NCBI GenBank assembly: GCA_004212975.1
Contig: SHBF01000001.1
Span: 2,801 to 66,800, forward strand
Direction of reading: 5' to 3'
Length of the DNA: 64,000 nt
DNA from: SAR86 cluster bacterium
Lineage (GTDB): Bacteria > Pseudomonadota > Gammaproteobacteria > Magnimaribacterales > D2472
How positions within the stretch are numbered: the first letter of the stretch is position 1; the number at the start of each line of letters is the position of its first letter. A program made the position numbers and the translations under genes. This document shows, in pieces, positions 1 through 48,588 of the stretch. Under the pieces are notes generated by a model. The model made no database searches. It worked only from the letters and a program-made list of their open reading frames with translations, and was not told where the DNA came from.

Positions 1-2247
1 AGAATTAATTCTTTTTTTTGGTAGAGAAAAAGTATGAGTATCAAAATTAAACTTCCCAACACGATTAATCATTAAGTTTTGATTTGTGAGGCTAGGAGTT
101 TTAAAGTCAGATAAGTTAGTACCCATCAAATTTATAGACAGATCGCTTTGCTTAAAATTTATAAGATATTGCATTTGAAGATCAATCCCCTTTACCAAAG
201 TATTATCTTCATTGAAGTAGGTAGTTGTAACTCCTATAAGATCACCAAATTCATTTCTTGTAATACTCGGTCCAAATGGATTTGAAGATAATATTGCTTG
301 AGCACTTTCGACCTCGACTCTATCTTCATATTCTATCTCCCAAACATCTATGCTAATTCTAAGATCATTTCTTTGAAATATTAGTCCAATATTTGAATTT
401 GTTGAGGTAGCTGGTTTCAAATTTGGATTACCTGTTGAGGCTTGTCTTACAAAAACCGAATCATTAACGTCTCTTACGCTTCCAAGATTAATTTCACTTG
501 AGTACATTTGCGCCATAGATGGTGCAGAAAAAGCGGTTCCTTTGGAAAATCGAATTGTTAGAGCATCAGCTACATTATATTTCAATGAAATCTTTGGATC
601 GAATGATGATTCATTCTTCATAGACTCATATCTTGCTGCAACTCTTAAATCTAAAGCCTCTTGAATACTTTTTTCTATTTCAAGAAATAAAGCATTGCTA
701 GTCCTTGATTTGGATAAATTAATTCCTCCACCCAGAAAGAAAAGGTCAGCTGTTTTCACTAACTTTCCATCCTTATCAAACTCAGCTCTACTAACTTCAT
801 CATAATAAATATCTAAACTTTCTTTATTTAGTTGAAACCCATAAGCTAAATTGAGGTTTTTTAATTTCCTATTAAATATTCCATGTACAGAAATAAGGTC
901 AGCTACTTTTGATGAAACTTCTGCGCCTCTAACATAATCAATAAGAGATTTTGGATTTTGAGTTGAATCAAATATATTCCAAGTAAGATTTCCATCAGGA
1001 CCACCATTTCCTTTTATGGCAGCAAGAAATCTTGAATCAATAATATCAGGCCTAAAGTGATCATTGGAGTGCTCACTCACAGTTATAGATATATCGGCAT
1101 CAGTTGTTTGATTGATTAAAAAAGAAAGACTGTAATTAACATTAAATTGTTCAATGTCTTTAGGTGAGTAGGGTGACTTGAATTCCGAACCAAGAGGTCT
1201 GCCATACCATACAACTGGAACATTAAAAGGGCTCCCGCCCTCACCAGGCTCAATATTTCTTGATAAAAAAGGAAGAGCAGGATATGAAGGAGATTGAGGA
1301 TTATCGTTTACATTAACTTTAGATGATATGAAATGGAAATTATGTTTTAAAACCCCCGTTTCTTTTGAAAAATTCAAATAAATTTTTTGATGATCCTCAT
1401 CATTTACAATATTGAATCTTTCTCCATATAAAAATCTACAAAAACTTCCATCAAGAACGCCGCCATTTTCTTCACAATTTGGATCTGGAACAAATTGACT
1501 TACTTTTGGGTAAGCTCCAGCAAAAAGTCCAGATGAAACAATATCCGGACCAAGCACCTTGAAGGTTTTACCAAGACCACTTAATCCCAATTCAGCAATT
1601 CCATCTATTTCACTTGCAGACAATGGAGACCTCTCAAGCGCATTGAAACCAATCACAAGTTTTCCATCTAGGATTTTTGTTCCAAACAAAATACCAAAAC
1701 TATTATCATCTTGATTATAGTTTGTAGTAGTCTGTTTACCGGCTTTAACCCTTAATCCTTCAAATTCTCTAAATGTAAGAAAATTAACAACTCCAGCAAT
1801 TGCATCTGAGCCATATATTGATGTTGCACCTTCTTTTAGGATTTCTATTTTTTCAATAGCAATTTCTGGAACAATATTTGCATCAATGTAGCCATTTCCG
1901 TTATTGGATGGTGTTCCTGAAAAAGTATGTCTTCTAGAATTTAATAGTAATAAAGTTGCGGAAGCATCCAAACCCCTTAATGTAATTGATGACATGCCCT
2001 GATCAACCCCTTCAAGTGCATTTGTTTGAAATCTAGATCCTGAGCTTACGTTCAAATACTTACTTATTTCACCAATATTTGTGATATTAAAATTTTTATA
2101 ATCATTTTCATTAATAAGTTGAACAGGCGATAAATCACTTTCTGCATTTTTTAGAAGTGTTCCTGTCACAACTATTTCTTCAATTTCGTTTGAGTGAATA
2201 AAAAAAGAAAAAATTAACAAAGAAAAGACTTTTATCATTAATCGCAT
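1..2247 (-). CDS. TonB-dependent outer-membrane receptor, N-terminal ~749 codons only (C-terminus lies beyond window start)
   Basis: My own minus-strand translation of 1801-2247 and 1-72 is stop-free in this frame, and the track lists no ORF of 60 aa or more anywhere in 1-2324. So the frame is probably open from ATG 2247 (alt ATG 2238) to position 1, which would explain its absence from the ORF track. N-term MRLMIKVFSLLIFSFFIHSNEIEEIVVTGTLL (signal peptide plus TonB-box-like EIVVTG). Plug motifs ITLRGLDASATLLLLNSRR and IEKIEILKEGATSIYGSDAIAGVVNF. Confidence 0.85.
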   Translation of the reverse strand, partial: MRLMIKVFSLLIFSFFIHSNEIEEIVVTGTLLKNAESDLSPVQLINENDYKNFNITNIGEISKYLNVSSGSRFQTNALEGVDQGMSSITLRGLDASATLLLLNSRRHTFSGTPSNNGNGYIDANIVPEIAIEKIEILKEGATSIYGSDAIAGVVNFLTFREFEGLRVKAGKQTTTNYNQDDNSFGILFGTKILDGKLVIGFNALERSPLSASEIDGIAELGLSGLGKTFKVLGPDIVSSGLFAGAYPKVSQFVPDPNCEENGGVLDGSFCRFLYGERFNIVNDEDHQKIYLNFSKETGVLKHNFHFISSKVNVNDNPQSPSYPALPFLSRNIEPGEGGSPFNVPVVWYGRPLGSEFKSPYSPKDIEQFNVNYSLSFLINQTTDADISITVSEHSNDHFRPDIIDSRFLAAIKGNGGPDGNLTWNIFDSTQNPKSLIDYVRGAEVSSKVADLISVHGIFNRKLKNLNLAYGFQLNKESLDIYYDEVSRAEFDKDGKLVKTADLFFLGGGINLSKSRTSNALFLEIEKSIQEALDLRVAARYESMKNESSFDPKISLKYNVADALTIRFSKGTAFSAPSMAQMYSSEINLGSVRDVNDSVFVRQASTGNPNLKPATSTNSNIGLIFQRNDLRISIDVWEIEYEDRVEVESAQAILSSNPFGPSITRNEFGDLIGVTTTYFNEDNTLVKGIDLQMQYLINFKQSDLSINLMGTNLSDFKTPSLTNQNLMINRVGKFNFDTHTFSLPKKRINS

Positions 2248-2275
2248 AATGTTGATTATAGAGGTTTTAATGAAC

Positions 2276-2304
2276 ATAAAAAACTGGCCCAAATTTGGGC
2301 CAGT
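2276..2304 (-). terminator. Rho-independent terminator after the His-rich TonB receptor gene
   Basis: Perfect GC-rich palindrome ACTGGCCCAAATTTGGGCCAGT (2283-2304), followed on the minus strand by a T-run. It begins 20 nt after the stop codon at 2325-2327. Confidence 0.8.
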
Positions 2305-2324
2305 TTAATTTCTATATTGAAATA

Positions 2325-4553
2325 TTAGAAGGTTAGATTAAATTTTAATCCATAGTTTCTTCCAGGAAGAGGAACTTCATTTTTCACAAAAGAAGAGTGA
2401 TTCCTGGCAACTTCATCAAGAAGGTTATTAGCGAAAAGCGAAACTTTTAATTCACCTTCACCCATTCCATTAAATGTTTTGGTTAGTCGTGTGTTAAGCA
2501 TTTGATAAGCATCAGTTGCTGTTTCACCTTCACCAATATCATTTTGTTTTTCAACATCCTTAAGCATTAGCTTAAAGAGCAAATCATCTTGAGTATAAAC
2601 TAAAGAATAAATGTTTCTTGCTGGATTAATCCTTGGTATGTAATGTCCATCAGCGAATTCAGCATTCACAACATCTCTTCCGAAAGATAAAGCAAGCTCA
2701 CCAGAGCCAAGATCAAAACTTCTTCCAATTTCAATCTCGTATCCATCAAACTCAGCATCTTCTTGCATGTAATTAGCATGAATCAAATTACCATGACCAT
2801 GATCATCATGCTCGTCTTCATGATGTTCACCTTCCTCTTCATGATGATCATCTTCGTCTTCATGATGTTCATCTTCATCCATGTGATCATCTTCTTCATC
2901 TATTAAAGCAATATAATTATCCACATCAGTGATATAAAAACTTGCGTAAGCATAGAAATCACCATTATCAAAATTAAAAGTGATATCAAAGTTATTAGAA
3001 GTTTCACTGTTTAGATTTGGATCACCGACTTCAAATCTTCCTGTTGCCATATGAGGTCCATTCATGAAGAGTTCAATTGAAGATGGCAGTCTTTCAACAC
3101 TAGCATAACCAAGACTAATACCAAGATTATCGGTTAGACTTCTACCAAGAGTTACAGCAAAACTGTTAGTAGAATCATCTATATTGTAATAATCTACTTC
3201 TCCATGCTCATCTCCATGATCATCATCATGTTCTTCTTCAGTAACACTTCCACTTCTTTCTATTTGGTCGTGTCTAAAGCCGACATCAAGATCATATATT
3301 CCTAAATCTTTACTGAGGTAATAACCGATTGTGAATTCTTTACTATTAGCAGGATTCATAAATGCTTCTTCACCAACAATAGAGTTATCTTCATCAACAA
3401 AATTTACAACAACCTTTTGAGTTGAAGAGTCATTTGAAATATCAAAAGTAGCACCATACTCAACAGCCTCATTCATGAAAACGGTTGGACCAAGTTCTTC
3501 ATGATCTTCTTCTTCTTCATGTTCTTCTTCTTCATGACCTTCTGTAAGTGAGTAATCTGAATCTCGGTATGTAAAGTCAACTTTATTAACAAGATTTCCA
3601 TTAACATTATATGAACCTCTTATAGAAAAAGTTTCAGAATCAGTTGTGGAAAAAATTCTTTCTTCACCATGCTCTTCTTCATCACCATGTTCGTCACCAT
3701 GTTCATCTTCGTGCTCGTCGCCATGAAATGGAATACCATAAACACTTTCAAGATTATCAATTCCAAATCCAATGTAGCCCCAGTCTGTTACTTTAGATAC
3801 ACCGAACTTAGTTGCCTCAACAGCAAAATCTGAGTTATTTATATATCCTAAATCTTCCTCAGAATGCTCATCTTCATGATGTTCATCTTCATCGTGATCA
3901 TCTTCATCATGATGCTCTTCCTCTGAATGAATTACAGCACCACTAGGAACATCATAGTTTCCAAAATCAGTATTTTTATAGCCAAAATTAACATTAAATC
4001 CACCAACATTGCCTTTTAAATTAACAAATTCTGAATTTCCGTCATTTACAGATTGAGATTCATATCCAACTGAAACCTCAGGAATTTCAAAATTCTTAGT
4101 TGAAATTAAATCATCAACAACATTGATAATTCCTCCTATGGTCCCATTTGCGTATAGAAGTGATGAAGGTCCTTTGACAATTTCTACTTGAGAAATATCA
4201 TTCAAATCTACGTCATTTAAGTGATCAACGCCAAGACCAGAAACATCTCTGTTCACGACACCATTTTTAAGTATTTTTACTCTTGGGCCTGACATGCCTC
4301 TAATTATTGGTTGGCCAACTGCTGAACCATAGTCTGCAATTGAAAGACCAAGATACTCATCAATCGCATCACCCAAACTTGTCGTTGCTCCATCTGAGAA
4401 TTCAGCACCATCAATGACGTATAGTGGATTATTAATTTCACTTGTATCGATAAAAGCCGAAGTAACAACTATTTCTTGTACCTCATCTTGTGAAGTTATG
4501 TTTATCGAATGAAATGCAATTAAAACAATAATTGCGTTTAAAAATTTTTTCAT
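2325..4553 (-). CDS. TonB-dependent receptor with five His/Asp/Glu-rich insertions
   Basis: 742 aa. Signal peptide MKKFLNAIIVLIAFHS, EIVVTS TonB-box-like segment, plug motif PIIRGMSGPRVKILKNG and IVKGPSSLLYANGTIGGIINVV, C-terminal GRNYGLKFNLTF with terminal Phe. Strong AAGGAGG RBS upstream of the ATG at 4553. H/D/E blocks at aa 209-234, 277-298, 339-353, 439-452 and 552-588. Confidence 0.9.
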   Translation of the reverse strand: MKKFLNAIIVLIAFHSINITSQDEVQEIVVTSAFIDTSEINNPLYVIDGAEFSDGATTSLGDAIDEYLGLSIADYGSAVGQPIIRGMSGPRVKILKNGVVNRDVSGLGVDHLNDVDLNDISQVEIVKGPSSLLYANGTIGGIINVVDDLISTKNFEIPEVSVGYESQSVNDGNSEFVNLKGNVGGFNVNFGYKNTDFGNYDVPSGAVIHSEEEHHDEDDHDEDEHHEDEHSEEDLGYINNSDFAVEATKFGVSKVTDWGYIGFGIDNLESVYGIPFHGDEHEDEHGDEHGDEEEHGEERIFSTTDSETFSIRGSYNVNGNLVNKVDFTYRDSDYSLTEGHEEEEHEEEEDHEELGPTVFMNEAVEYGATFDISNDSSTQKVVVNFVDEDNSIVGEEAFMNPANSKEFTIGYYLSKDLGIYDLDVGFRHDQIERSGSVTEEEHDDDHGDEHGEVDYYNIDDSTNSFAVTLGRSLTDNLGISLGYASVERLPSSIELFMNGPHMATGRFEVGDPNLNSETSNNFDITFNFDNGDFYAYASFYITDVDNYIALIDEEDDHMDEDEHHEDEDDHHEEEGEHHEDEHDDHGHGNLIHANYMQEDAEFDGYEIEIGRSFDLGSGELALSFGRDVVNAEFADGHYIPRINPARNIYSLVYTQDDLLFKLMLKDVEKQNDIGEGETATDAYQMLNTRLTKTFNGMGEGELKVSLFANNLLDEVARNHSSFVKNEVPLPGRNYGLKFNLTF
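2857..2879 (-). repeat. 23-nt exact repeat copy A (codes DEDEHHED in insertion block 5)
   Basis: tcttcatgatgttcatcttcatc on the + strand, identical to 3871-3893. Confidence 0.9.
3871..3893 (-). repeat. 23-nt exact repeat copy B (codes DEDEHHED in insertion block 1)
   Basis: tcttcatgatgttcatcttcatc on the + strand, identical to 2857-2879. Confidence 0.9.
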
Positions 4554-4573
4554 ATTGCCTCCTTTATGAAAAA

Positions 4574-4597
4574 TTAGTTAAAAAATTAATTAACTAA
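4574..4597. repeat. AT-rich inverted repeat TTAGTTAA-N8-TTAACTAA between the small His-rich ORF and the receptor gene
   Basis: 8-bp perfect arms read directly from the sequence. It overlaps the TAG stop (4594-4596) of the small ORF and lies about 20 nt upstream of the receptor RBS. Confidence 0.4.
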
Positions 4598-4863
4598 TCT
4601 AAAGGTGGAGCTCTTGATAGGTTTGATTTTTGTTTTTGACTTACAAATCTATTGATTAGATTTGTTTCAGGAGATTCTTTTAAAAAATTGCCTTTATTTT
4701 TTGTTGAAGCAATTTTAATTTCAACATTTTCTTCACAAGCTTGGCATTTAGCCAAATGCTCATCTTCAAAGCTGAAGTGATCATGATGATCCGCAAAGCT
4801 GTGCAATGACAAACTTGCTAGAAATAGGAATGAATATAGTAGATATTTTTTATTCATGATCAT
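4594..4863 (-). CDS. Small secreted His-rich / CxxC protein (unknown family)
   Basis: 89 aa (87 aa from ATG 4857). Signal peptide NKKYLLYSFLFLASLSLHSFA, then DHHDHFSFEDEH and CQAC. The start overlaps the end of the upstream dehydrogenase gene. No family recognised. Confidence 0.55.
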   Translation of the reverse strand: MIMNKKYLLYSFLFLASLSLHSFADHHDHFSFEDEHLAKCQACEENVEIKIASTKNKGNFLKESPETNLINRFVSQKQKSNLSRAPPLD

Positions 4864-5917
4864 GGGTAAGGCATACTAGACCATTAATCTTTCCATTTTT
4901 CAAGTCATTTAAAGTTTTATTTGCCTCTGAGGCATTTCTTTTTTCAACCTCTACATGTTCAATCTTGTTTTCTCTTACAAACTCCATTAATTCACTCATT
5001 TCTTGCAGACTTCCAACATAGACTCCTCGAATGGTTCTTGCAGTTAAAGTTGTCATTGGAAGCTGTAAGTTTGTTTCTCCTCCAATCAAGCCAACAATTA
5101 CATATGTACCACCTCTTTTCATACCGAACATTCCAGATGCAAGCTCAAACGTCTCAGCTGCACCTACAAAATCAATGACACTGGTGGCACCACCATTAGT
5201 AAGTTCTGCAATTTTTTCGAACAACTTCTCGTCTCTTGAATTAATTACTTCAGATGCTCCAGCTTGTTTTGCTAGCTGAAGTTTTTCATCATCTATATCA
5301 ACAACTATAGGGTTAATCGAGTAGGCTGCTTGAATGATTTTTAATGAGAGTAATCCGAGCCCTCCAGCGCTTATGATAACAACAGAATTTTGACCTTTAA
5401 CTAAATCTGCTTTTTTAAGCGCACTGTATGCAGTCAAACCTCTGCAAGCGTAACTTCCAGCAACTTCGTCTGGAGTATCCCCGGCATCAAATAAATATTT
5501 AGAATCAGGCACGAGAACGTATTCAGCATAACCACCGTCTACATTAATGCCTAAATTTTTTGTTGTTAGAGGTGAACAATAATGCTCTCTATCATTAGCG
5601 CACTCATCACAATTACCACATCCTATCCAAGGATATGCAACATATTTTTTTCCAATTTCAATACCCGAAACATCTTCACCTAACTCAACCACTTCACCAT
5701 ATATTTCATGACCCATAGCAAGCGCATCGGTCATTAGAGGTACTGGAAGTTTTGCTTTTTCCCCCAAACTAAAAAAACCTTCATGTATATGGACGTCTGA
5801 ATGACAAACACCACATGCGACAGTTTTAATTAATATTTCTTTCCCAGTCGGTTTAGGTTTTTCTATTTCTCTTTTTTCTAGAGGTTTACCGTTTTCAACA
5901 ACTTGATATGCTTTCAT
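4850..5917 (-). CDS. Zinc-type medium-chain alcohol dehydrogenase/reductase
   Basis: GVCHSDVH catalytic-Zn motif, GHEIYGEV, structural-Zn cluster CGNCDECANDREHYC, Rossmann ISAGGLG. Start set to ATG 5917 (MKAYQVV...), because the track's start at 5944 is a TTG extension. Confidence 0.9.
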   Translation of the reverse strand: MKAYQVVENGKPLEKREIEKPKPTGKEILIKTVACGVCHSDVHIHEGFFSLGEKAKLPVPLMTDALAMGHEIYGEVVELGEDVSGIEIGKKYVAYPWIGCGNCDECANDREHYCSPLTTKNLGINVDGGYAEYVLVPDSKYLFDAGDTPDEVAGSYACRGLTAYSALKKADLVKGQNSVVIISAGGLGLLSLKIIQAAYSINPIVVDIDDEKLQLAKQAGASEVINSRDEKLFEKIAELTNGGATSVIDFVGAAETFELASGMFGMKRGGTYVIVGLIGGETNLQLPMTTLTARTIRGVYVGSLQEMSELMEFVRENKIEHVEVEKRNASEANKTLNDLKNGKINGLVCLTHDHE

Positions 5918-5921
5918 AGAT

Positions 5922-6002
5922 TTAATTATCTTTATTTGTAACAACCCAATACAACAGACCTATGAGAATAACATTACCGATTATGTAAGTTGTTAAGTCC
6001 AT
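5922..6002 (-). CDS. Possible 26-aa single-TM peptide (speculative)
   Basis: My translation gives MDLTTYIIGNVILIGLLYWVVTNKDN. The ATG lies 3 nt after the stop of the preceding small ORF and the stop lies 4 nt before the dehydrogenase ATG. No clear SD. Confidence 0.25.
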   Translation of the reverse strand: MDLTTYIIGNVILIGLLYWVVTNKDN

Positions 6003-6005
6003 TTA

Positions 6006-6137
6006 TTAACTAAAAAATACAATCAAACATATTATTAAAACAAGGTATATGCCTACATAAACATATTGACCAGTTCTAAAGTCTCTTTTTAAAGCCTCGT
6101 CTTTTTGTGAAGTGTTTTGATTATTAGAATCTTCCAT
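6006..6137 (-). CDS. Possible 43-aa single-TM peptide (speculative)
   Basis: My translation gives MEDSNNQNTSQKDEALKRDFRTGQYVYVGIYLVLIICLIVFFS, a polar N-terminus followed by one hydrophobic span. It starts 21 nt downstream of the tRNA-Thr 3' end. Confidence 0.3.
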   Translation of the reverse strand: MEDSNNQNTSQKDEALKRDFRTGQYVYVGIYLVLIICLIVFFS

Positions 6138-6139
6138 AT

Positions 6140-6158
6140 GAGTAATAATATCATCATA
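6140..6158 (-). promoter_or_regulatory. Fur-box-like 19-mer (weak)
   Basis: Minus-strand TATGATGATATTATTACTC matches GATAATGATAATCATTATC at 12 of 19 positions by my count. It sits at the head of the minus-strand receptor cluster. AT-rich background makes chance matches likely. Confidence 0.25.
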
Positions 6159-6235
<77 letters not shown>

Positions 6236-6342
6236 GTGGAGTGTGATTTTACATTATAGAATTATAAAAATTAATCCTTTTATAAAATTAAATTTAAAAT
6301 TAAGTATTGAATTCTATATCAAATGTAATAAAATTTTAGGTT

Positions 6343-7062
6343 ATGAAAAAATATTTATCTATAACAATTTTTATGATGTCATCAATCCTGATTGCAGATG
6401 ATCATACTGAACCAAATTATTCAAAGTTCCAAGCAAATTATTTCTTTAGCTGCCCTAATGAACCTGCTTGTGGCGCTGCATTCGATAAAATGATGAATAC
6501 TCCTGAAATAAAAGAGCAAAAATATGAGGCTGCTTTATCAAGGATTAGTCTTCAAGGTTATACAAACATTACCCATTCGATTAATTTTTATTACAAAAGT
6601 GCTGAAAGATTCCAAGAAGCATCAGAAATATTTTCTAGTTCACCTGCATTTGCTGTATTTGGACAGGAAATGGCTGCTGCTGGAGCTCAACCGTACTATC
6701 ATAATTTAACTAGTTATTTGATAGCAGAGGGTGATGGAAGAGGCGCTAATCACGGTCTTACTTTTGTTACCGAGGTTAGCAATCCAGTTGTCTATTTTAA
6801 TGCTTTTAAAAAGATGGCTGCAAAGATGTTTGAAGAATCATTTGGTGGTGAGGCGTATCTTTTAAGACAACAGCATACTGGTGGAGGTAATGTAACTCAT
6901 TCAGTATCAGTCTATTTTAACTCAAATGCTGAAGCGCTTGATTTTCTTGCCAATTATCCAAATACAACTCAATTTGCTCAATTTGTTGAAGAAGCAGGAA
7001 CTTCATTTAAACCGGTTAGAACATATATGGAGCAAGTTTTGCTTCAGTACAATCCTGATTAA
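6343..7062 (+). CDS. Secreted hypothetical protein built from two duplicated ~105-aa halves
   Basis: Signal peptide MKKYLSITIFMMSSILIA. The two halves align, e.g. NITHSINFYYKSAERFQEA (aa 75-) against NVTHSVSVYFNSNAEALDF (aa 183-). The beta-alpha-beta pattern suggests a ferredoxin-like/ABM-type fold, which is inference. Confidence 0.7.
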   Translation: MKKYLSITIFMMSSILIADDHTEPNYSKFQANYFFSCPNEPACGAAFDKMMNTPEIKEQKYEAALSRISLQGYTNITHSINFYYKSAERFQEASEIFSSSPAFAVFGQEMAAAGAQPYYHNLTSYLIAEGDGRGANHGLTFVTEVSNPVVYFNAFKKMAAKMFEESFGGEAYLLRQQHTGGGNVTHSVSVYFNSNAEALDFLANYPNTTQFAQFVEEAGTSFKPVRTYMEQVLLQYNPD

Positions 7063-7065
7063 TAA

Positions 7066-7617
7066 TTAATCTAGAGTACAACCAGTTCCACCTAGTCCAC
7101 AATATCCATTAGGGTTTTTGGCTAGGTACTGTTGGTGATATTCTTCCGCAAAATAGTAGTTTTTAATTAAACTTATTTCAGTTGTAATATCACCAAATTT
7201 ATTGGCTCTTAGAATGTTTTGAAACTTTTCTTTACTATTAGTAACTCGTTCAATATCATGCTCATTTGAACAGAAAATTACAGATCTATACTGAGTTCCA
7301 ATATCATTCCCCTGTCGCATTCCTTGAGTAGGGTCATGACATTCCCAAAAAATTTTCAATAATGCCTCTAGATCTATGACATTTGAGTCATATATAACTT
7401 TTACAACCTCAGCATGATTTGTATTTCTATAACATACATCTTCGTATGAGGGATTTTCAGTATCCCCACCTGAATATCCAACAGAGGTTAAAAAAACTCC
7501 TGGTAAATCCCAAAATTTTCTTTCAACTCCCCAAAAACATCCAGCGCCGAAAACTATCTCTTTATAATTTTCAGGTACATTGTTATTAATGGGAATATTT
7601 TTAATAAAATGAATCAT
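7066..7617 (-). CDS. msrA: Peptide-methionine (S)-S-oxide reductase
   Basis: GAGCFWGVE active-site motif, ...AEEYHQQYL..., 183 aa. Confidence 0.95.
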   Translation of the reverse strand: MIHFIKNIPINNNVPENYKEIVFGAGCFWGVERKFWDLPGVFLTSVGYSGGDTENPSYEDVCYRNTNHAEVVKVIYDSNVIDLEALLKIFWECHDPTQGMRQGNDIGTQYRSVIFCSNEHDIERVTNSKEKFQNILRANKFGDITTEISLIKNYYFAEEYHQQYLAKNPNGYCGLGGTGCTLD

Positions 7618-47729: not shown

Positions 47730-48076
47730 TGGTGGAGGCGGCGGGAATTGAACCCGCGTCCGTCAATCCTTCAGCCTAACTTCTACATGCATAGCTCATT
47801 CTATTATTTTTAACTTTTATCACCCGAAGAGCAGGGTATAAAAGCTAGCTTGATTAAGTTTTACCAAACTATATCCAAGCAATATAGCTTGGCTAGACTG
47901 TGTGTTTAGCCGATGCTTCAAACCACAGTCAATTCTTGCATCGGTTAGCATTAAGCTGCTAAGGCGTAGTTGTCGTTATTTGCAACTATTTTTTTTGTAG
48001 TATGTTTTACAAGAATTACTACAATCTTGGCATGCGCTTCGGAGTCCAGTAGAAACGTCGAACCCTATTCGCCCCC
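47730..48076 (-). ncRNA. ssrA: tmRNA (SsrA)
   Basis: Minus strand starts GGGGGCGAATAGGGTTCGACG and ends ...GGGTTCAATTCCCGCCGCCTCCACCA. The acceptor stem has the G3:U pair. Internal tag frame present. Lies directly downstream of smpB. Confidence 0.95.
47951..47983 (-). other. tmRNA tag reading frame, ANNDNYALAA plus stop
   Basis: GCA AAT AAC GAC AAC TAC GCC TTA GCA GCT TAA read on the minus strand. Compare the E. coli tag ANDENYALAA. Confidence 0.9.
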
Positions 48077-48117: not shown

Positions 48118-48588
48118 TTAGGAGAATTTTTTTGAATTTTTAAGAATTCTTCCTTGATCTCTTTCCCAATCTCTTTTTTTGATATCCTCTCTTTGATCCC
48201 TATGCTTTTTGCCTTTGCCCATGGCAATATCACATTTAATTAAATTATCTTTCCAGTAAATTTTTGTTAAAACACATGTAAGTCCTTTCTCACCTTTCAA
48301 TCTTTCTATCTTTTCGATTTCTTTTCTATGAAGTAAAAGTTTTCTTGATTTAGTCAAATCTATATCTTCTTGTTTTAAAGATGCTGGACTATCAATTTTT
48401 ACTCCAATAAGCCAAGCCTCACCTTTTTTGATATTTACATATGAATTTTTTACATCAACCTTTGACTGTCTTAGCGATTTTACTTCCCAACCTTCTAAGA
48501 CAATTCCGGCTTGAAAACTTTCATCTAATTTATAGTTTCTAGAAGCATTTTTATTCTTTACAATTAAAGAAGGTTTTTCTTTAGGCAT
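48118..48588 (-). CDS. smpB: SsrA-binding protein SmpB
   Basis: ...KNKNASRNYKLDESFQAGIVLEGWEVKSLR..., 156 aa. Confidence 0.97.
   Translation of the reverse strand: MPKEKPSLIVKNKNASRNYKLDESFQAGIVLEGWEVKSLRQSKVDVKNSYVNIKKGEAWLIGVKIDSPASLKQEDIDLTKSRKLLLHRKEIEKIERLKGEKGLTCVLTKIYWKDNLIKCDIAMGKGKKHRDQREDIKKRDWERDQGRILKNSKKFS

Follow-up and report, generated by a model that had tools for sequence, protein, structure and literature searches.

The stretch of DNA analysed here (the window) comprises 64,000 nucleotides (nt) of contig SHBF01000001.1, positions 2,801 to 66,800, from assembly GCA_004212975.1 of a SAR86 cluster bacterium. SAR86 is an uncultured group and among the most abundant bacteria of the surface ocean. 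Two consecutive genes on the minus strand are the subject of this text. The first is an upstream open reading frame (uORF) of 89 amino acids (aa) at 4594..4863, identified from the list of open reading frames and from its motifs, which is predicted to encode a secreted arrest-peptide leader resembling CruR and CutF. The second, taken from the same list, begins after an A/T-rich gap of 40 nt and encodes a TonB-dependent receptor of the ZnuD family (2325..4553, 742 aa, ATG start). The features of these two genes described below are on the minus strand.

A preliminary description of the locus, made from the sequence, had attributed a normal chassis to the receptor, and this was confirmed. Based on Pfam and an AlphaFold model, aa 1-22 of the protein form a signal peptide; the plug takes up ~aa 38-158 and the barrel, with 22 strands, aa 159-741. 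The Pfam matches to the Plug domain (aa 38-142, 63.7 bits) and to the TonB barrel (79 bits) both exceed their cut-offs. The segment E27-IVVTS-32 (4458..4475), read from the sequence, is one that we take to be the TonB box from established knowledge of the family, and in an alignment of relatives it is kept as (E/V)xVVTS. The C-terminus, ...NLTF with the final aromatic residue F742, is also kept among relatives. A composition count found no cysteines in the receptor.

A scan of one genome per species retrieved 258 relatives of the receptor. The best 80 of these 258 are nearly all from SAR86 single-cell or metagenome-assembled genomes (MAGs) with an equal gene neighbourhood, and their identity reaches up to 93% in the best-matching segment. 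Because the SAR86 relatives share this neighbourhood and the window (G+C ~34%) carries the tuf-secE-nusG-rpl-rpoBC cluster, the receptor is a chromosomal gene of a SAR86 bacterium. One 2.2-kb contig with this receptor (CAXFIU010000092.1, locus L013) is binned as 'Candidatus Poseidoniales archaeon', almost certainly a binning error.

The chassis is interrupted by five blocks rich in His, Asp and Glu (HDE blocks). Block 1, HSEEEHHDEDDHDEDEHHEDEHSEED, occupies aa 209-234 (nt 3852..3929) and falls in loop L2 (aa 202-242), between strands 3 and 4, where the predicted local distance difference test score (pLDDT) is <50. Block 2, HGDEHEDEHGDEHGDEEEHGEE, spans aa 277-298 (nt 3660..3725) in loop L3 (aa 274-299). 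Block 3, EGHEEEEHEEEEDHEE, spans aa 338-353 (nt 3495..3542) in loop L4 (aa 341-356), its first residue being E338. Block 4, EEEHDDDHGDEHGE, is found at aa 439-452 (nt 3198..3239) in loop L6. Block 5, the longest, contains 10 His and extends over aa 552-588 (nt 2790..2900) in loop L8 (aa 553-590). Four of the five block positions agree exactly with those first described; the exception is block 3, which had been placed one residue too late, at aa 339. The earlier count of about 28 His in blocks made of H, D, E and G was reproduced: recomputation gave 28 His, and the blocks are nearly all H/D/E/G.

Together, the five blocks amount to 115 residues with 24% His, 23.5% Asp, 41% Glu and 9% Gly; Lys and Arg are absent. 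Of the receptor's 35 His, 28 are in the blocks, and His makes up 1.1% of the other 627 residues. Given the residue frequencies elsewhere in the protein, only ~3e-7 runs with 13 of 14 residues H, D or E would be expected over its whole length, which excludes a chance origin. No HDE block was detected in any other open frame of at least 100 aa in the window (93 frames, 23,164 residues), and the idea that the blocks are an artefact or a genome-wide compositional habit was therefore rejected. At the DNA level, the blocks are imperfect tandem repeats of codon units with periods 12, 15, 18, 21 and 42, block 5 being a 21/42-nt tandem repeat. The variation in block length among relatives fits these codon-unit repeats.

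Two structure predictions were obtained. The first, with 30 close relatives (67-99% identical), reached a pLDDT of 51.6, too weak for use alone. The second, an AlphaFold prediction with 146 diverse sequences gathered by profile search, gave a mean pLDDT of 83.1, a predicted template modelling score (pTM) of 0.85 and 22 strands. In this model the connections that contain the blocks follow strands 3, 5, 7, 11 and 15, and by the standard topology of the family they are predicted to be extracellular loops L2, L3, L4, L6 and L8. The suggestion that the insertions are extracellular loops therefore agrees with the model for all five blocks. A check by structure prediction, set beforehand, found no block in a periplasmic turn or in the plug, and the periplasmic turns of the model all measure 2 to 7 residues. 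Apart from the first 35 residues of the protein, confidence is low mainly in the blocks, as expected of disordered loops; the dip is milder in L4 and L6, where the mean pLDDT is ~55.

HDE blocks are widespread among relatives of the receptor. An exhaustive search of 1.84 billion cluster representatives retrieved 8,164 relatives. The 120 closest database relatives (67-99% identical) all have three to five blocks at the same positions, with lengths that differ by whole repeat units. Block 4 is present only in the nearest of these 120, and it recurs in more distant members of the family. We counted blocks loop by loop in 124 full-length diverse representatives (25-56% identity): 27 have no block loop, 35 have one, 33 two, 17 three, eight four and four five. 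L3 is the loop most often occupied (86 relatives), followed by L2 (60), L8 (26), L6 (18) and L4 (11), with rare instances in L7 and L10. HDE blocks were never found in a periplasmic turn or a strand in these 124 relatives. Five such loops are also seen in proteins of the cultured strain HTCC2207 and of other SAR86 genomes. With five blocks, the SAR86 receptor thus stands at the upper end of a continuous range rather than alone, within a large branch of the ZnuD family that is uncharacterised. The earlier statement that five blocks are well beyond any characterised receptor stands for characterised receptors and fails overall, given the thousands of uncharacterised relatives with one to five such loops. 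Searches of the literature on SAR86 zinc receptors and on His-rich loops of TonB receptors found nothing specific, and no prior description of the multi-loop His/Asp/Glu architecture or of its family-wide spread was found in the literature searched. Two relatives (P0008, on a 44-kb contig, and P0010; 625 aa, ~92% identical) lack ~aa 230-350, and with them L2 to L4 and four strands. Either the deletion is real, in which case it should disrupt the barrel, or the repeats gave rise to an assembly artefact.

The way in which the blocks vary bears on whether they have a function in metal capture at all. They could be a fast-evolving surface decoration, for instance serving evasion of phages or grazers that exploit the receptor, or acting as a hydration or charge shield, in a receptor for another substrate such as haem. 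This would fit blocks built of slippage-prone codon repeats whose length varies between close relatives, as well as the FRAP/NPNL-like segment common to haem receptors and the secondary, weaker matches to haem-receptor families. The haem and haemoglobin models all scored under their cut-offs (TIGR01785, 103.6 versus 316.85 bits; TIGR01786, 83 versus 323.75 bits), and ZnuD itself has haem-receptor motifs but binds no haem (PMC4557270). Moreover, the H/D/E/G composition is held at the same loops down to ~25% identity. Because composition is kept while sequence and length drift, selection appears to act on the chemistry of the loops. A charge shield would have no need of 24% His, and the regulatory elements around the family are metal-related. 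We consider mere decoration very improbable.

Sequence, profile and fold all identify ZnuD as the closest characterised relative, in line with the kinship proposed earlier. The best NCBIfam match of the receptor is ZnuD (NF038289, E 6e-54), and the best PDB sequence match is also ZnuD (4rdr, E 3e-31). A family profile built from the 124 relatives aligned to ZnuD end to end in the PDB (E 4.7e-160), the next match being a haem receptor (3e-43). Foldseek searches of the PDB with the model returned ZnuD structures as the top four matches (E ~1e-38, best 5.6e-39; template modelling scores 0.76-0.91), with OprC next (2e-28). The profile search against subfamilies of TonB-dependent receptors that had been suggested at the outset thus leads to ZnuD by both sequence and fold. 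Judged by the NF038289 cut-off, the receptor is a relative within the wider ZnuD family and not a ZnuD ortholog.

The buried zinc site of ZnuD is formed by the high-affinity ligands Asp99, His100, Glu340 and His499, and zinc in this site was shown by X-ray absorption (PMC4557270). In the alignments, for which the deposited ZnuD chain is offset by 14 residues, each of these ligands has an identical counterpart. D110-H111 (4221..4226), at the apical loop of the plug, aligns to D99/H100 in the SPDHA segment of ZnuD. E338 (3540..3542), in the barrel, corresponds to E340 by profile alignment. H501 (3051..3053) aligns to H499 and lies in the conserved loop 7 segment NGPHMATGRFE. Very few columns are invariant in the alignments of 124 and 146 relatives, down to ~25% identity, and those of the four residues belong to them; all four are also kept in each relative checked individually. 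The four-ligand zinc site of ZnuD therefore appears to be retained in the SAR86 receptor. The blocks can also be placed on ZnuD: block 2 aligns residue by residue to His/Asp cluster 1 (241-HSHEYDDCHAD-251) in ZnuD loop 3, and block 4 falls in ZnuD loop 6, residues 430-459 (profile alignment; loop naming from PMC4557270). ZnuD has, in addition, a peripheral metal site between L3 and L4, of which E347 in loop 4 is part (PMC4557270).

Regulatory sequences upstream of relatives also point to zinc. We scanned 90 related loci (1.43 Mb) with the gammaproteobacterial Zur-box consensus TGTTATAWTATAACA, allowing at most one mismatch. Only five matches were retrieved, all of them just upstream of these receptors or their uORF. 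In Glaciecola, two Zur boxes precede a receptor relative at -83 and -56, and in Paraglaciecola a perfect match is found at -46. A complete SAR86 genome carries a Zur box at -48, before a 742-aa relative (53% identical) with five HDE blocks. In a Colwelliaceae strain (L088), the Zur box (2101-2115) lies 5 nt before the start of a RAPP uORF, such that both controls are present in one operon. The other boxes are those of L065 (7953-7967), L083 (4918-4959) and L089 (2455-2469), three loci without a uORF; L065 is the only uORF-less locus among the SAR86 and Porticoccaceae-type loci examined. In Coraliomargarita, the gene directly downstream of the receptor relative belongs to the FUR family, and a ZIP-family gene is close by. 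A promoter scan gave fewer matches than were obtained in shuffled sequences.

Since the zinc ligands are conserved and some relatives are found with Zur boxes and zinc context, zinc is the best-supported substrate. The most likely form, judged from homology and context, is free or weakly complexed Zn(II). The original choice between Zn, Ni, Co and Cu is thereby narrowed towards zinc by the conserved ZnuD ligands and the Zur boxes at relatives. A broad-specificity scavenger, or one for another divalent metal (Ni, Co, Mn or Fe(II)) with the loops acting as a general cation-exchange surface, seems improbable to us. Block composition alone selects no metal, TonB receptors for nickel are known, and Co and Ni are also scarce or strongly complexed in the open ocean. 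However, the D/H/E/H site is that of a receptor in which zinc was identified by X-ray absorption, relatives are preceded by Zur boxes rather than Fur-type or NikR-type sites, and Rfam detected no nickel/cobalt riboswitch or other known RNA element upstream.

The uORF, which the preliminary description did not mention, has a signal-peptide-like N-terminus, a His patch (H26-HDH-29, nt 4777-4788), a CxxC motif (C40-QAC-43, nt 4735-4746), a 40-residue spacer and the sequence R84-APP-87 (nt 4603-4614), followed by two residues and the stop codon. Nearly all related loci have a counterpart on the receptor's strand, 30-90 nt upstream of the gene, among them distant loci such as those of HTCC2207, Porticoccaceae and SAR86E; counterparts are also present in Hellea, Kineobactrum, Colwelliaceae and Coraliomargarita. 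These counterparts are 9-68% identical to the window copy, yet they have one anatomy in common. A signal peptide is followed by a His patch (HHDH, HDH or HHH) and in most cases by EC-x-x-CE, then by a variable spacer and (R/Q)APP, with one to five residues before the stop codon. Between CxxC and RAPP there are 40 or 41 residues in 32 of the 38 uORFs and 42 in one more; the remaining five have no CxxC. In the alignment, APP is invariant, and the Arg and one His are kept in at least 90% of sequences. Database searches gave 438 homologues; the best 120 have no Pfam domain, and the few named by their source are called 'hypothetical protein'. The window uORF itself has no Pfam or NCBIfam match. With PF11162 (DUF2946), two of 27 uORFs matched weakly (best E 0.0043, 18.2 bits versus a gathering threshold of 23.7). 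Natural variants of the arrest motif also occur: the leaders of a Pseudomonadales MAG (L066) and of Marinicella (L087) end in RASP and RGSP, instead of RAPP/RGPP.

RAPP is an experimentally established arrest motif, arrest at RAPP having been shown structurally and by toeprinting. In CruR of Bordetella pertussis, copper relieves the arrest and this leads to Rho-dependent termination (PMC9426467). In CutF, stalling melts a stem-loop that masks the next gene's ribosome-binding site. RAPP/RGPP uORFs before TonB receptors are a recognised class, so far discussed for copper (PMC12992588). By analogy, the SAR86 uORF would be a nascent-peptide metal sensor of the CruR/CutF type, a kind so far described only for copper.

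Owing to the CruR precedent, copper is the main alternative metal. The receptor could be a copper uptake receptor whose His-rich loops gather Cu(II), with a CxxC/RAPP leader that senses copper as CruR does. The leader has the hallmarks of CruR, with an export signal, CxxC, a C-terminal RAPP, fixed spacing and a place as first gene before a TonB receptor, and His-rich peptides bind Cu(II) well. In addition, the regulation by CruR is copper-specific (PMC9426467), and the literature groups RAPP uORFs before TonB receptors with copper genes. The receptor itself, however, resembles ZnuD and not OprC: the OprC/NosA copper-receptor model TIGR01778 scored 36 bits versus a cut-off of 472, and the fold match to OprC is clearly weaker. 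According to its structure paper, OprC reportedly has a copper site of Cys, Met and His; a Cys-containing site of this type is impossible here, because the receptor has no cysteine. Moreover, the four ZnuD zinc ligands are invariant, and Zur boxes precede relatives, including the operon with both a Zur box and a RAPP uORF. The additional, near-invariant His patch by the CxxC of the leader would also suit Zn coordination of the Cys2His2 type. Taken together, a copper receptor appears unlikely.

The region between leader and receptor is predicted to fold. The receptor Shine-Dalgarno sequence, AGGAGG (nt 4558-4563), lies in a predicted mRNA stem-loop (4557..4611) in which it pairs with the Ala and Pro codons of RAPP and the codons that follow. 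The structure is a two-tier hairpin, the inner A/U hairpin being followed by a run of U. In the window, its minimum free energy is -15.2 kcal/mol (z = -2.9), and none of 200 shuffled sequences folded as well. The Shine-Dalgarno sequence is predicted to pair with the arrest-site region in all 58 distinct loci (58/58), with a mean probability of 0.87. The nucleotides with which it pairs are located from -2 to +14 nt relative to the first Pro codon, and different groups use different registers, three in all. When the 3' end of the leader was recoded with matched codon usage, the pairing probability was 0.73, versus 0.88 for the natural sequences; pairing was stronger in 31 of 39 loci, which are related and hence non-independent. 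RNAalifold found no single consensus structure across groups in 34 leader-to-start segments, because the groups of loci use different pairing registers. Rfam searches of window positions 2000-6500 detected no riboswitch or leader. A mode of Rho-dependent termination as in CruR is unlikely, because the intergenic region is only ~40 nt long and A/T-rich. A coupling of arrest to the Shine-Dalgarno sequence is physically consistent with the predicted structure, and we regard it as plausible.

Considering these results, we propose that the receptor is a ZnuD-family zinc transporter with a five-loop capture net, controlled in cis by the 89-aa leader, and we put the probability of this reading at roughly two in three. 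We infer that the loops bind metal, that zinc is the substrate and that ribosomes arrest on the leader. In ZnuD, loop 3 has been described from crystal structures and simulations as a 'fishing net' that feeds the buried site (PMC4557270). The SAR86 receptor would multiply this principle over most of the rim, its five disordered H/D/E loops serving as flexible Zn(II) capture arms of low affinity and high capacity around the barrel mouth, in agreement with the multi-loop metal-capturing surface first suggested. The loops would enrich the metal there and pass the ion to the buried site formed by D110 and H111 at the plug apex and E338 and H501 in the barrel, the L4 block beginning with the zinc ligand E338. 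Movement or unfolding of the plug, driven by TonB, would then release the ion into the periplasm.

Expression would be set by the leader. When zinc is scarce, ribosomes would stall on RAPP and cover the pairing codons, so that the receptor Shine-Dalgarno sequence becomes accessible and receptor synthesis proceeds. Once zinc is available, it would bind HHDH and CxxC of the nascent leader and relieve the stall; the stem would re-form and receptor synthesis would be switched off. The direction of this switch would follow that of CruR and the logic expected of an uptake gene. Tentatively, we suggest that this is the first zinc-sensing RAPP arrest peptide, in which HHDH and CxxC read zinc and gate a ZnuD-type receptor by unmasking its ribosome-binding site and which, together with the His/Asp/Glu net at the rim, would sense and harvest zinc at picomolar levels. 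In much of SAR86 and its relatives, the cis-encoded leader would then stand where other members of the family have a Zur box. We regard this joint claim as possible rather than probable. No prior description of a RAPP leader paired with a zinc-type receptor at the place of the Zur box of relatives was found in the literature searched.

Several observations weigh against the proposed zinc system. The NF038289 score of the receptor, 183.8 bits, is far below the cut-off of 950. There is no Zur box in the window: the sole match with three mismatches, at 7419, is inside another gene, and seven such matches are expected by chance. His/Asp/Glu stretches also bind Ni, Co and Cu(II), and in seawater the carboxylates of the loops would also meet millimolar Mg and Ca. 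With respect to the leader, CruR is the sole characterised uORF of this kind before a TonB receptor, and it answers copper and responds little to zinc (PMC9426467). With respect to the RNA, other genes with a strong Shine-Dalgarno sequence often have it paired as well (mean 0.55, n = 37), and Pro-Pro codons by nature resemble an anti-Shine-Dalgarno sequence. The evidence of selection on the RNA pairing is moderate.

The gene neighbourhood contains further features. An 11-bp G+C-containing hairpin (2281..2306, without assigned strand), right after the receptor stop codon, looks like a bidirectional terminator. Beyond it lies a second TonB-dependent receptor (1-2247, minus strand), truncated at the window edge with 749 aa visible, which has no His-rich loops or HDE blocks and gave weak matches to siderophore and haem receptor models. 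It occupies the same position in many SAR86 loci. We considered this receptor as part of one unit with the ZnuD-like receptor and rejected it, given the strong hairpin between the genes and the lack of HDE blocks. On the other side, a gene of the zinc-dependent alcohol dehydrogenase family (4850-5944, minus strand) has a stop codon that runs into the start of the leader ORF, with an overlap of 14 nt, and a match to it (58-98% identity) is present at the same position in 28 of 80 related loci. The presence of a zinc enzyme beside a putative zinc receptor may be coincidence or may reflect co-transcription. A possible 43-aa ORF, MEDSNNQNTSQKDEALKRDFRTGQYVYVGIYLVLIICLIVFFS, with one hydrophobic helix, was read by eye at 5945-6158 (minus strand), between the dehydrogenase and tRNA-Thr (6159-6235). 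A gene at 6343-7062 (plus strand) encodes a 239-aa protein with a signal peptide and no Pfam or NCBIfam match, which has a 78-92% identical counterpart nearby in several SAR86 loci. A check of the rest of the window for zinc genes found no znuABC or zur and returned only housekeeping genes. The window also has an ordinary tmRNA gene (47730-48076, minus strand; tag peptide ANNDNYALAA) with smpB adjoining it at 48118-48588.

Free zinc in the surface ocean is picomolar, and zinc acquisition by heterotrophs is poorly known. If the proposed reading is true, a large unannotated family with thousands of metagenomic members would be the marine counterpart of the pathogen receptor ZnuD. Its members are currently labelled 'TonB-dependent receptor' or, misleadingly, 'iron complex outer-membrane receptor'. 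The receptor would serve as a zinc-stress marker gene in metatranscriptomes and metaproteomes of the ocean, and the range of zero to five His-rich loops among relatives offers a natural series for asking whether such loops increase capture rate or affinity. The RAPP leader would extend metal sensing by stalled nascent peptides, a recently discovered form of regulation, from copper to zinc, at the place of the Zur box of relatives. The main value is that zinc acquisition and sensing in an uncultured, globally abundant bacterium become directly testable.

Both components belong to known kinds, namely ZnuD-type receptors and CruR/CutF-type leaders. ZnuD (TdfJ) of Neisseria meningitidis (4RDR/4RDT/4RVW) matches best by sequence, by profile and by fold. 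It too has a plug and a barrel of 22 strands, identical residues at the four positions of the buried zinc site and a His/Asp-rich loop 3 at the homologous position. However, its identity to the SAR86 receptor is only ~21% in the structural alignment made by Foldseek. In ZnuD, one long, partly folded, disulfide-bonded loop 3 contains two short His/Asp clusters, whereas L3 of the SAR86 receptor is short and made only of H/D/E/G, four more loops (L2, L4, L6 and L8) carry blocks and cysteine is absent. ZnuD is under Zur control in a host-restricted pathogen; the SAR86 gene belongs to a free-living marine oligotroph and has a RAPP uORF instead of a Zur box. The TonB receptors ZnuK, ZnuL and ZnuM of Caulobacter crescentus, likened here by description, are required for growth at low zinc in a free-living oligotroph, with several per genome, and they are Zur-regulated; some relatives of the SAR86 receptor likewise carry canonical Zur boxes. 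Unlike the SAR86 receptor, they are regulated by Zur alone, and the paper describing them does not contain the words histidine or His-rich.

As for the leader, CruR (Bp2923, DUF2946; bfrG operon of B. pertussis) is likewise a small exported protein, first in its operon and directly before a TonB receptor, with a CxxC and a tightly conserved CxxC-RAPP spacing. The spacing is 45 in CruR versus 40-41 here, where an extra His-rich patch precedes the CxxC and the uORF falls under the Pfam threshold for DUF2946. The intergenic region of CruR measures 162 nt and contains a C-rich Rho site, in contrast to the ~40 A/T-rich nucleotides of the SAR86 locus, and the receptor downstream is here ZnuD-like, from a family tied to Zur and not to copper genes. 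CutF of Rhodobacter capsulatus (cutFOG) is also a secreted leader of the DUF2946 type, with a coupling like that predicted here; its metal and its target gene differ from those of the SAR86 leader. CutF stalls when copper-bound and turns on a detoxifying oxidase, whereas the opposite logic, as in CruR, would be expected for the SAR86 uptake receptor.

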